A stretch of 64,000 nt of DNA from Candidatus Gastranaerophilales bacterium (GTDB lineage Bacteria; Cyanobacteriota; Vampirovibrionia; Gastranaerophilales; Gastranaerophilaceae). Positions 11,275-14,668 of the stretch are shown piece by piece (position 1 is the first letter of the stretch; each line of letters opens with the position of its first letter). Under the pieces are notes generated by a model. It saw nothing but the letters and a program-made list of their open reading frames with translations. It was not told the origin of the DNA and searched no databases. Position numbers and translations under genes: made by a program. The stretch spans positions 12,480-76,479 of the forward strand of contig CANPWQ010000001.1 in NCBI GenBank assembly GCA_947584965.1, given 5' to 3'.

Positions 11275-12570
11275 TCACTTCGTCAATTCATCCCTTAATT
11301 CGGCAACAATTTTTTCCGTGTATTTGTAATTTTTTGATATTTCCTCGTATATAAGATTTATTTCATTATTTTTCTTTTCTATTGCCTCATTAAGGTAATC
11401 GTAAACTTTAGGGAATACCTGCTGCGTTTTTTCTTCTATCGCCTCATTAAGGTAATCGTAAACTTTAGGGAATACCTGCTGCGTTTTTTCTTCTATCGCC
11501 TCATTTATATTATCATAGATTTCAATACTTACTTCCTGCACCTTTTTTTCAAGTGCTTCATTAACGTAAGTGTAAATTTGCGAAACTTCCTCATCAAACA
11601 GCTTTTTTAAGTACTCAAAAGACTCATTGGTAAATCCGTATATTTTATTGACTTCACTATACAGCTTTTTTAAGTCTTCATCTGTTGCGTTTATTAATAT
11701 ATTAGTAGTCGTTCCGCCTATATTATTTTTTAACGATTTACCAAACGAATTTTGCCTGTATTCCAATATTTTAGGCGCATATTTTGTATAAGTTAAATAA
11801 TAGTAATAACAATCATAAACAGGATGTTCAAAAGGCATAAGCCACGGCTTAAATCTGCCCGATAAGTGCAATATAGAAGCATTTGTAAGACTTTTAGCTT
11901 TTATATTATTATATAAAAAGAACTGATAGTTCCATTTTTCATCAAGTTCTTTAATTTTTCCGTCAAGAACACAATTAATAATATCCTGATCCTGCCATAA
12001 AATTATGTCTTTATGTTTTTTGCCAAATTCAAACAACTCAGCACTTATTGCATTTTTACGCCAATAACCTAAATTTATCAGCATTACTCCCGCATTAAAG
12101 TATTTTTTTATGTTGAGTCTTTCTGACTCTTTTTTTGTTTCCACATCTAAGACCATTGCCGCGGGTGAATTTTTTATATCTGTATTAAATAACTCCTCTA
12201 AGGATGTTCTGACTATTACGTCACAATCTAAATATAAAATTTTATCGACTTTAGGCAAAACCTCGGGCAGTAAAAATCTGAAATACGTAGGCAGAGTAAC
12301 ATGATAATTTTTATAGTGTTTATTGTTATCTTTTAACATCGGGCAGGAGGAAAAATCTTTTACTTCCATTTTTATATATTCAATATTAAAATTTTTAATA
12401 TTTTTTAATAATTCAATGTCAGATTTGTCACTCTTTTTTAATCCGCCGTCCAGTACGTATATATTGATATTATCTTTTACCGAAGCATTTTTTAATATTG
12501 AAACAAGAGAAACACTAAATTGTTCAATATAATTTTTATCAAGACTATAGCAAATATTGTATTCTGACAT
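11275..12570 (-). CDS. family 8 glycosyltransferase (LPS-type retaining GT) with a C-terminal repeat tail
   Basis: YNICYSLDKNY.., YLDCDVIV (DxD), NAGVMLINL, QDQDIIN. ATG at 12570 is preceded by GGAGAAAAAG; the track start at 12591 is an alternative. The tail ends in IYEEISKNYKYTEKIV. Confidence 0.88.
   Translation of the reverse strand: MSEYNICYSLDKNYIEQFSVSLVSILKNASVKDNINIYVLDGGLKKSDKSDIELLKNIKNFNIEYIKMEVKDFSSCPMLKDNNKHYKNYHVTLPTYFRFLLPEVLPKVDKILYLDCDVIVRTSLEELFNTDIKNSPAAMVLDVETKKESERLNIKKYFNAGVMLINLGYWRKNAISAELFEFGKKHKDIILWQDQDIINCVLDGKIKELDEKWNYQFFLYNNIKAKSLTNASILHLSGRFKPWLMPFEHPVYDCYYYYLTYTKYAPKILEYRQNSFGKSLKNNIGGTTTNILINATDEDLKKLYSEVNKIYGFTNESFEYLKKLFDEEVSQIYTYVNEALEKKVQEVSIEIYDNINEAIEEKTQQVFPKVYDYLNEAIEEKTQQVFPKVYDYLNEAIEKKNNEINLIYEEISKNYKYTEKIVAELRDELTK
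11385..11498 (-). repeat. perfect 57-bp x2 tandem duplication (19 aa, EAIEEKTQQVFPKVYDYLN) within the GT8 tail
   Basis: cctcattaaggtaatcgtaaactttagggaatacctgctgcgttttttcttctatcg occurs twice back to back. More diverged copies flank it on both sides. Confidence 0.95.
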
Positions 12571-12693
12571 CTTTTTCTCCTTTGCGGACATTTAAAATTG
12601 TACTATACATACACAAAAAAAAACACTTATGTAATAATAATTAAAGTATTAAAAAAAAATGCCGATTATATATTTGGAAAAACAGGCAATAAA

Positions 12694-13008
12694 ATGGAAA
12701 CAATTGAAGATAGTGATTTAAAAAAAGTCGGACTTGAACTTATGTTCTTAACGCCTGAAAAATGCAGCCGTTCGGAGGGAATTTCTGCTGTCGAATTATC
12801 TAAATCACTTGGTATGCCTTTAGATACCGTAAAAAAGAAACTTAAAATCCTTTTGGATAAAGAAATAATAAGAGTCTACGGGATTAATCCGAAATTATGG
12901 AAATTTGATGAATATAAATTTCAAAAAATGGATGAAGATGATGAAGTATACAGGCTTTTATGCAACTTTGACGATGTCGATTTTGACAGGTACTTTTCCT
13001 ATAATTAA
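12694..13008 (+). CDS. small winged-helix-like DNA-binding protein (hypothetical), divergent from the GT operon
   Basis: 104 aa from the ATG at 12694. ..ISAVELSKSLGMPLDTVKKKLKILLDKEIIRVYG.. looks like an HTH plus wing. The upstream extension in the track is AT-rich junk. Confidence 0.55.
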   Translation: METIEDSDLKKVGLELMFLTPEKCSRSEGISAVELSKSLGMPLDTVKKKLKILLDKEIIRVYGINPKLWKFDEYKFQKMDEDDEVYRLLCNFDDVDFDRYFSYN

Positions 13009-13040
13009 TTTTTAAATTTATAATTTTATAATTTTTCAAA

Positions 13041-13202
13041 AATAATACGATATTCATCGGATACTGCGTTTCTTTTTCACTAACCTCAACCAAAGGTTTC
13101 GTAACTCGCTTCACTACGTTTCGCTCAAACAGACGAAACCTCGCAGTTGTTTCGGCAAGTGAAAAATACGAAACTCCGTATATGATTTCATATCGTATTA
13201 TT
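13041..13202. repeat. 162-nt long imperfect palindrome / structured element with internal GTTTCG/CGAAAC repeats
   Basis: 13-bp perfect terminal inverted repeat AATAATACGATAT/ATATCGTATTATT, extended by TCAT/ATGA, CGGA/TCCG, GTTTC/GAAAC and TTTTTCAC/GTGAAAAA. The interior holds a GGTTTCGT..ACGAAACC stem and six copies of the GTTTCG motif. A TATAAT box at 13027-13032 sits 8 nt upstream. Confidence 0.4.
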
Positions 13203-13228
13203 CTTAAAAATGGAAAAAATCAATTTAT

Positions 13229-13399
13229 CAAAAAAGCCCTATGCGAATATGATTTTGTTACCTGTGAATGCTCCACAGGTGGGTAAGCGCCTTAACAAAT
13301 CCGTTTCCTGCTGCAAGGCAGGTCTACTGCATTGTTATTAGAGTCTTCTTTCCCTTTTAATCAAGATGTAGGAACAAAATAAATACCCGCATAAGGCTC
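13229..13399 (-). ncRNA. candidate small RNA of about 170 nt with 6S-RNA-like rod architecture
   Basis: On the minus strand, 5' GAGCCUUAUGCGGGUAU..UUUUGUU pairs with AACAAAA..AUAUUCGCAUAGGGCUU, about 24 bp. Four of these pairs are G-U and would be A-C mismatches on the other strand. An 18-nt unpaired 5' bubble strand faces a 3' bubble strand that forms its own 6-7 bp hairpin. An apical stem follows, the RNA ends in U6, and TGTTATAAT lies just upstream. Confidence 0.45.
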
Positions 13400-13403
13400 T
13401 TAT

Positions 13404-13412
13404 ATTATAACA
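13404..13412 (-). promoter_or_regulatory. extended -10 promoter element (TGTTATAAT) for the 6S-like RNA candidate
   Basis: The reverse complement of 13404-13412 reads TGTTATAAT. The closing-stem 5' end starts 5 nt downstream. Confidence 0.4.
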
Positions 13413-13414
13413 CC

Positions 13415-14668
13415 TTATTTTTCATTTTTCACTATATTATTGATTAATTTTACAGCCTCCGATAATAATTTATCTTTAGATTTTTTATCGGAAGCGGAAT
13501 TTATTGTAATATCAGGAATAATACCTGTTTTTTCTATGTCCTCGCCGTTAGGCAGTATGTATTTTTCCGTTGTTATTATTAAACCTGTTTTATTCGGCAT
13601 AGGAATTACCCGTTGAATTGTGTTTTTACCGTATGTATTTTCGCCCATAATTATCGCATTAATATCACTTTTGAGCGCACCAGCCAGTATTTCCGCAGCA
13701 CTTGCCGTCTTTTCATTCACCAGTATTATTACGGGCTTAGGTTTAAATACCGATTTTGTATCCGCATTTATCTTAAATATCGGCACACCCTTTTTCTCTA
13801 TACTTAATATTAATCCCTCTGCTATCATCATATCAGCCATTTGAACGGCATTTGCAAGTATCCCGCCGTAATTATTTCTTAAATCAATAATTAATGCTTT
13901 AGTTCCGTTTGTTTTTTCAAGTATATTTCTAAAATCTATAAGCGCTTTTTCACCCATTATCGTCGACAACGTTATTATTCCGATGTTATCCTTTGTAATG
14001 ACATATTTCATTGTATCAATCGGAATATCACCGCTTTTAAGCTCTTTTACAAGTATTAAATTCCCGCGCTTTATCTCTACTTTATGTACTTTGTCTTTCC
14101 CCGAATTAATATAATTTTGAATTTGCTCTATTGTCATTTTATTAATGTTTACATTGTCAATTTTAACAATATAATCTCCGGGCATTATATTTTGCTCTTT
14201 TGCGGAAGAATTTTTTATTACTCTGTTTACAATAAGCCCTTGCGCGGATTTATTTAAGGTTAAACCTACTCCCGTTATTTTAGAATCCATTATGACTTTT
14301 TGCCGCTTGTAATTATTGGATTTTAAAAACCTTGTATATGGATCATTCAAACTGCTTAACATTGTATTTATTGCAACTTCGCAGTCCTCCATGGTCTTAA
14401 TTTTATTATTGTATCTGTTTCTCCACCTGCGCCAATCCTGATTATTCATTGTTTTGTCGGTATATTCACGTCTTGCTGTGCGCCAGGCATTAATATAGAC
14501 TCTTGCAGGCGCTATTTTTTGAGTCTGCCTTATACTCTCTATTGCGTTTTTCATCGGGGCATAATTTATTTTTTCCAACGGATTAAATTTTATATCAATT
14601 ATTATCGCAATGATTAATATTGAAAACGTATAAAATAATATATTTTTAATTTTAAAATTTTTATCCAT
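13415..14668 (-). CDS. ctpA: C-terminal processing peptidase, family S41 (PDZ domain)
   Basis: N-terminal TM segment; PDZ region (GVGLTL..PGDYIVKIDNVNI); IIDLRNNYGG; LVNEKTASAAEILAGAL (Ser/Lys dyad region). Confidence 0.88.
   Translation of the reverse strand: MDKNFKIKNILFYTFSILIIAIIIDIKFNPLEKINYAPMKNAIESIRQTQKIAPARVYINAWRTARREYTDKTMNNQDWRRWRNRYNNKIKTMEDCEVAINTMLSSLNDPYTRFLKSNNYKRQKVIMDSKITGVGLTLNKSAQGLIVNRVIKNSSAKEQNIMPGDYIVKIDNVNINKMTIEQIQNYINSGKDKVHKVEIKRGNLILVKELKSGDIPIDTMKYVITKDNIGIITLSTIMGEKALIDFRNILEKTNGTKALIIDLRNNYGGILANAVQMADMMIAEGLILSIEKKGVPIFKINADTKSVFKPKPVIILVNEKTASAAEILAGALKSDINAIIMGENTYGKNTIQRVIPMPNKTGLIITTEKYILPNGEDIEKTGIIPDITINSASDKKSKDKLLSEAVKLINNIVKNEK

Follow-up and report, generated by a model that had tools for sequence, protein, structure and literature searches.

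The stretch of DNA analysed here, which we call the window, comprises 64,000 nucleotides from a Candidatus Gastranaerophilales bacterium and carries on its minus strand a gene for a C-terminal processing peptidase, followed directly by an element that matches the Rfam model of 6S RNA. The peptidase is the upstream same-strand neighbour of this element, with its stop codon lying 2 nt before an extended -10 motif. On the downstream side, a small convergent ORF (12598-13008, plus strand, 136 aa) has no Pfam match and shares 81-90% identity with its counterparts in three genus members. The coordinates of the features discussed below, which include the presumed 3' end of the RNA and the predicted template for a product RNA, are collected in the following table.

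Features of the 6S RNA locus, in window coordinates, with the basis on which each was assigned
Feature	Coordinates	Strand	Basis
C-terminal processing peptidase (S41 + PDZ)	13415..14668	-	Peptidase_S41, 1.3e-41
-35-like hexamer GTGAAA, 17 nt upstream of the -10	13427..13432	-	promoter scan
Extended -10, TGTTATAAT	13404..13412	-	10/12 matches, TG present
6S RNA (ssrS) gene	13231..13401	-	RF00013 match, single copy, covariation in 30 homologues
Closing helix, 5' strand	13373..13401	-	27 pairs, 4 G-U; covariation
Helix P2 (downstream duplex), inner part of closing helix, UAUUUUGUU region	13373-13380	-	
Predicted product-RNA template, UAUUUUGUUCCUAC	13368..13381	-	inferred from Rfam alignment and B. 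subtilis similarity
Central bubble, 5' strand, CCUACAUCUUGAUUAAAA, 18 nt single-stranded	13355..13372	-	unpaired in MFE and centroid
Internal and apical arm, with interrupted stem	13281..13354	-	fold and covariation
Bubble-closing GGG/CCC helix, invariant	13352-13354 with 13281-13283	-	
Apical hairpin CCUGC-cuugca-GCAGG	13307-13322	-	
Pre-formed 3' bubble hairpin, ACCUGUGGA-gca-UUCACAGGU, 9 bp	13260..13280	-	fold and covariation
Closing helix, 3' strand, AACAAAAUC.AUAUUCGCAUAGGGCUUUU	13232..13259	-	fold and covariation
U6 tract directly 3' of closing helix, presumed 3' end	13230..13235	-	sequence

Identification of the element rests in the first place on a scan with Rfam 15, in which RF00013 (6S/SsrS) matches 13401..13231 of the minus strand over model positions 1-187, its full length. 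The score of 53.0 bits exceeds the gathering threshold of 46.4 (E = 1e-7 for the 64-kb window) by a margin of only about 7 bits, and a local, permissive scan of 12500-13900 returned the same family with E = 2.3e-9. Across the whole window, the scan at gathering thresholds reports two tRNAs and the 6S match only. A sequence-only reading had proposed a 6S-like RNA at this position and had suggested a search with the Rfam models as a check; the full-length match above the cut-off, the covarying helices and the conserved promoter described below all bear this proposal out, and a match to a different family is absent. That reading had also failed to find the signatures of SRP, RNase P or tmRNA by eye, in agreement with the Rfam scans, in which 6S is the sole credible family at this position, so that readings as SRP, RNase P, tmRNA or a riboswitch are rejected. 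The permissive scan additionally placed a plant miRNA model on the neighbouring palindrome, a meaningless match with 16.5 bits where 245 are required (E = 0.9). We therefore regard the minus strand from 13401 to 13231 as a single ssrS gene, with a probability of roughly 0.94, its role at the polymerase being assigned by homology. The locus is a canonical and ordinary 6S RNA gene, detectable by a routine Rfam scan.

The fold of the RNA is that of a 6S RNA. The segment 13401-13229 has a minimum free energy (MFE) of -59.0 kcal/mol, compared with -37.9 ± 3.8 kcal/mol for 200 dinucleotide shuffles (z = -5.5), none of which was as good. The MFE and centroid structures agree on a rod-like layout consisting of a closing helix, a central bubble and an internal and apical arm, so the architecture described from sequence is recovered by computation. 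The closing helix, previously estimated at about 24 bp, is present and extends to 27 pairs in the MFE structure (13401..13373 with 13259..13232), of which exactly four are G-U, the number counted earlier. The 18-nt 5' segment described as single-stranded is indeed unpaired, the 3'-side bubble hairpin exists and reaches a length of 9 bp, and both the apical cap and the U6 at the end of the RNA are found where they had been placed.

Comparison among homologues provides independent support for these helices. Thirty of the RF00013 matches from related genomes were aligned with MAFFT in a structure-blind manner. The RNAalifold consensus reproduces this 6S layout and comprises 49 pairs; compensatory changes, in which both sides differ and pairing is kept, occur at 31 of them. 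Paired cells make up 95.8% of the total, compared with 82.1% in column shuffles (reached in 0 of 500) and with 40-46% in controls where the 3' partners were slid by 1-3 columns; the covariation score reaches 0.416, whereas the slid controls do not exceed 0.089, and none of the five pairing measures was reached by any of the 500 shuffles. This support is distributed along the molecule: changes on both sides are seen in 13 of the 20 pairs of the closing helix (helix 1) and in 14 of the 21 pairs of the internal and apical arm (helices 2-6, 96-100% paired), and the 3' bubble hairpin (helix 7) has four compensatory pairs out of eight, with 97% of cells paired. The closing helix, the bubble-closing helix, the inner arm and the apical and 3' bubble hairpins are thus all supported by the homologues. 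Sequence conservation, on the other hand, is concentrated in the 5' strand of the bubble, where columns C30, C31, T32, C34 and A35 (CCU.CA) are invariant, and the longer motif UUUUG.UCCU.CA is likewise invariant across the 30 sequences.

The same alignment bears on the strand from which the RNA is read. G-U cells are frequent in the homologues (columns 15/186, UG in 23 sequences; 22/179, GU in 16; 27/174, UG in 15), which fixes the strand as minus. This accords with the earlier argument for a minus-strand RNA, in which the G-U pairs would be A-C mismatches on the opposite strand, and the RF00013 match is found on the minus strand only. A small ORF on the plus strand (13210..13341, 43 aa) was considered as a separate candidate and set aside, the substitutions among homologues being pairwise-compensatory and not codon-like.

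We next consider how the RNA may be made. The extended -10 that had been noted at 13404-13412 of the minus strand is present as TGTTATAAT, and only its spacing needs correction: GAGCC, where the sequence-only reading had the helix start, is separated from it by 4 nt and not 5. Within the 1 kb scanned around it, no site resembles a sigma-70 promoter more closely than this -10 and the GTGAAA hexamer together. The hexamer falls within the last codons of the peptidase gene and is kept as (A/G)TGAAA in most genus members, a conservation to which coding constraint may contribute. Nearly all genus members have the extended -10 itself, as TG.TATAAT, immediately in front of the RNA, and in the order's other families, where the upstream gene differs, its place is taken by a TATG..A.AAT-type element. 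For a further 29 loci, taken from the family's other genera, the distance from the end of TGnTAnnnT to the invariant core UUUUGUUCCUAC is 24-26 nt, compared with 24 nt in the window; 25 of these loci are exact, and the other four are one base off, reading TGTTATACT or TGTCATAAT. Since the -10 is kept at the same distance where the upstream gene differs, a dedicated extended -10 promoter for the 6S RNA is well supported by these comparisons, and the primary transcript is likely to start at about 13399-13397 and to end at 13235-13230, giving a length of roughly 165-170 nt.

The alternative that retains most weight, and which we nevertheless consider unlikely, is that the 6S RNA is produced mainly by RNase cleavage from the 3'-terminal part of the ctp (peptidase) mRNA, with TGTTATAAT not acting as the main promoter. 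The closeness of the peptidase stop codon to the -10 would suit such an arrangement, as would the same-strand ctp-6S order, in which the peptidase lies directly upstream of the 6S gene in 15 of 17 sampled genus members, and the 6S RNAs of E. coli and B. subtilis are known to be processed from longer precursors (PMC10578484). However, 13 loci sampled from the order's other families showed no peptidase upstream of the 6S gene, and the spacing between the -10 and the 6S core is the same in those other genera and families in which an upstream peptidase was not detected. Moreover, this alternative concerns biogenesis only and would leave the identity of the RNA as 6S unchanged.

Termination at the U6 tract is a plausible origin of the 3' end of the RNA. 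A simple terminator scan did not call this tract as a terminator, which we attribute to the fact that its 'loop' would be the whole RNA. Most homologues, though not all, have a T-rich tract behind the closing helix, and so the 3' end may instead arise by trimming or processing of a longer transcript.

Downstream of the 6S gene, 28 nt beyond its U-run, lies a 162-nt imperfect palindrome (13041-13202). Two genus members carry a copy behind their 6S gene, at 83% and 75% identity, and a rabbit-gut MAG that is near-identical has one with 91% identity in its locus. In two other members the palindrome is missing, and there the convergent ORF reaches right up to the 3' end of 6S. The window's genome contains a second, diverged copy at another site (77%; G000:C22:10489-10598), and the intergenic stretch upstream of this second copy (G000:C22; L066 ~1080-1400) appears by eye to be rich in G/C and in inverted repeats relative to its AT-rich background. 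The palindrome looks MITE-like because its pattern is patchy and it is present in several copies. Read on the strand of 6S, it has UUUUUG directly behind it, and it might stop 6S read-through. A bolder and weaker proposal is that, in that part of the genus which carries it, such read-through may be terminated or processed at the palindrome, which would then be a mobile back-up site.

Among the known 6S RNAs, the RNA described here is, as judged from its predicted fold, of the B. subtilis 6S-1 type and not of the E. coli type, because the 3' bubble hairpin is pre-formed. Like 6S-1 (bsrA), it consists of a rod with closing helix, central bubble and apical arm, and in both the 3' bubble hairpin is formed already in the free RNA. 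Its template core, (A/G)UUUUG(U/A)UCCUAC, resembles AGUUUUGACCGAAC of B. subtilis, and the known product RNA of B. subtilis and the one predicted here both start with G and continue into a CAAAA stretch. The two differ in length, ~170 nt here compared with 190, and the Rfam alignment shows deletions of 10 nt and 7+4 nt in the closing arm. They also differ in number, a single copy here in place of a 6S-1/6S-2 pair, and the window's genus is without the collapse helix in MFE predictions.

The E. coli RNA belongs to the same family, with a presumed promoter-mimic mechanism in common, and C34 of the RNA described here aligns to the E. coli product-RNA start region (CCgA) in the Rfam alignment. In E. 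coli, however, the 3' strand of the bubble is open and an extended 9-bp hairpin forms only after product RNA synthesis (PMC8876501), whereas the hairpin is pre-formed here. The genomic setting differs as well, since E. coli has an ssrS-ygfA operon and no ygfA lies downstream here, the neighbours being the peptidase gene and the small convergent ORF; proteobacterial ygfA or zapA synteny was not seen here. The cyanobacterial 6S RNAs (Synechocystis ssaA, Synechococcus 6Sa) come from the same phylum. Both inhibition of transcription and templating of product RNA have been demonstrated in vitro for cyanobacterial 6S (PMC5721685). The present host, by contrast, lives in the gut as a non-photosynthetic anaerobe and has a genome of ~1.7 Mb, and the roles of 6S in nitrogen and light recovery in Synechocystis cannot simply be transferred to it.

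The general model of 6S function is that the RNA mimics an open promoter and blocks the holoenzyme containing the housekeeping sigma factor, and that copying of a short product RNA (pRNA) from the 5' bubble strand unwinds the neighbouring helix and leads to release of the 6S RNA (PMC5721685; PMC8876501). In B. subtilis the 6S-1 pRNA 14-mer is GUUCGGUCAAAACU, with its start at nt 40 (PMC8876501). The CCUAC of the present RNA falls on CCgAa of the model in the Rfam alignment, and the B. subtilis template AGUUUUGACCGAAC aligns gap-free to UAUUUUGUUCCUAC; from these two correspondences we predict a pRNA start opposite C34 (13368) and a 14-mer of sequence 5'-GUAGGAACAAAAUA, so that the product RNA would begin 5'-GUAGGAACAAAAU. 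The template is nearly invariant, and the predicted product begins GUAGGA in 28 of the 30 homologues. If the general model applies here, the 6S rod would mimic an open promoter and occupy the active-site cleft of the polymerase carrying the housekeeping sigma factor, and would thereby damp transcription under nutrient scarcity. With the return of NTPs, the polymerase would copy the 5' bubble strand from C34, making 5'-GUAGGAACAAAAUA, and this synthesis would unwind the UUUUGUU/AACAAAA helix, leading to release of the 6S RNA. In the B. subtilis 6S-1 type, opening of helix P2 by the product RNA is followed by formation of a central bubble collapse helix. When the 14-nt template was blocked in folding, the MFE structure showed such a helix in two of the 30 homologues and in none from the window's genus; UGAUU:AAUCA could form a weak pairing of 5 bp, in a register that is not conserved.

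A suitable target for such an RNA is encoded in the genome, which has one RpoD-class sigma factor scoring 394.6 bits against an NCBIfam cut-off of 354. Three further genes of the sigma-70 family are close paralogues, with 217-323 bits on the RpoD model (the four genes lie at G000:C42:6252-6962, C5:42430-43140, C17:33627-34334 and C41:11942-12628), and this set resembles the group-1 and group-2 set of photosynthetic cyanobacteria, here in a 1.7-Mb gut genome. The presence of these paralogues leaves some room for a 6S-shaped RNA with another job, such as binding of core polymerase in the manner of Ms1 or targeting of a holoenzyme with a group-2-like sigma factor, and this actinobacterial core polymerase binder is structurally related to 6S (PMC9130861). 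We consider this very improbable, however, for the whole length of the 6S model is matched above threshold, the gene is the sole 6S-like gene in the genome and the canonical role would otherwise be unfilled, and neither the bubble nor the template core varies, as would be expected if they are read by the polymerase active site. Least credible of all, to the point of being negligible, is a palindrome acting at the DNA level as a bidirectional terminator between the convergent peptidase gene and small ORF, with no stable RNA gene: the region does sit between convergent ORFs and the plus strand also folds well, if less strongly than the minus strand (-51.4 kcal/mol, z = -4.3), but the Rfam match is restricted to the minus strand, the four G-U pairs of the closing helix and the many G-U cells of the homologues would become mismatches if read as DNA or from the other strand, a promoter is conserved at a fixed distance, and the element is retained in families with different flanking genes.

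As an ssrS gene, the locus can also be followed through related genomes. Its own genome has exactly one RF00013 match, and one copy is likewise found in 39 of 41 relatives, including all 28 of the high-quality genomes; the upstream peptidase has its closest genomic relatives in rabbit-gut Candidatus Gastranaerophilales MAGs, with 90-92% protein identity. The Vampirovibrionia (Melainabacteria), to which the order belongs, are the non-photosynthetic sister class of the cyanobacteria. In a sample of 151 Vampirovibrionia genomes, RF00013 was matched at E <= 1e-3 in 56 and above its own threshold in only six. A covariance model built from the 30-sequence Gastranaerophilales 6S alignment (R1) gave single 6S matches in 81 of the same 151 genomes, with identical coordinates wherever both models match, and found 6S in all 33 genomes of the window's family and single matches in 38 of 80 phylum genomes outside that family, figures in which a missing match does not equate to absence since the searches scored a limited number of pre-filtered candidates. 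The distribution of R1 matches across the phylum fits vertical inheritance of 6S.

Taken together, these searches raise the prospect that the Vampirovibrionia 6S RNAs form a compact subfamily of ~170-185 nt that is largely missed by the Rfam threshold and so is largely unannotated, a proposal to which we would give even odds. The almost invariant template of this subfamily is predicted to specify a G-initiated pRNA, GUAGGA(A/U)CAAAA. A literature search found no paper pairing 6S RNA with Melainabacteria, Vampirovibrionia or Gastranaerophilales, and with the Rfam cut-off missing most copies, the alignment and the clade model may be used for class-wide annotation of 6S.

For the locus itself, the significance of the finding beyond its correct annotation is small. 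The predicted product RNA does offer a concrete sequence target for small-RNA data, and, if the function assigned by homology holds, a non-photosynthetic gut relative of the cyanobacteria would retain the universal 6S brake on RNA polymerase, under a conserved promoter of its own.
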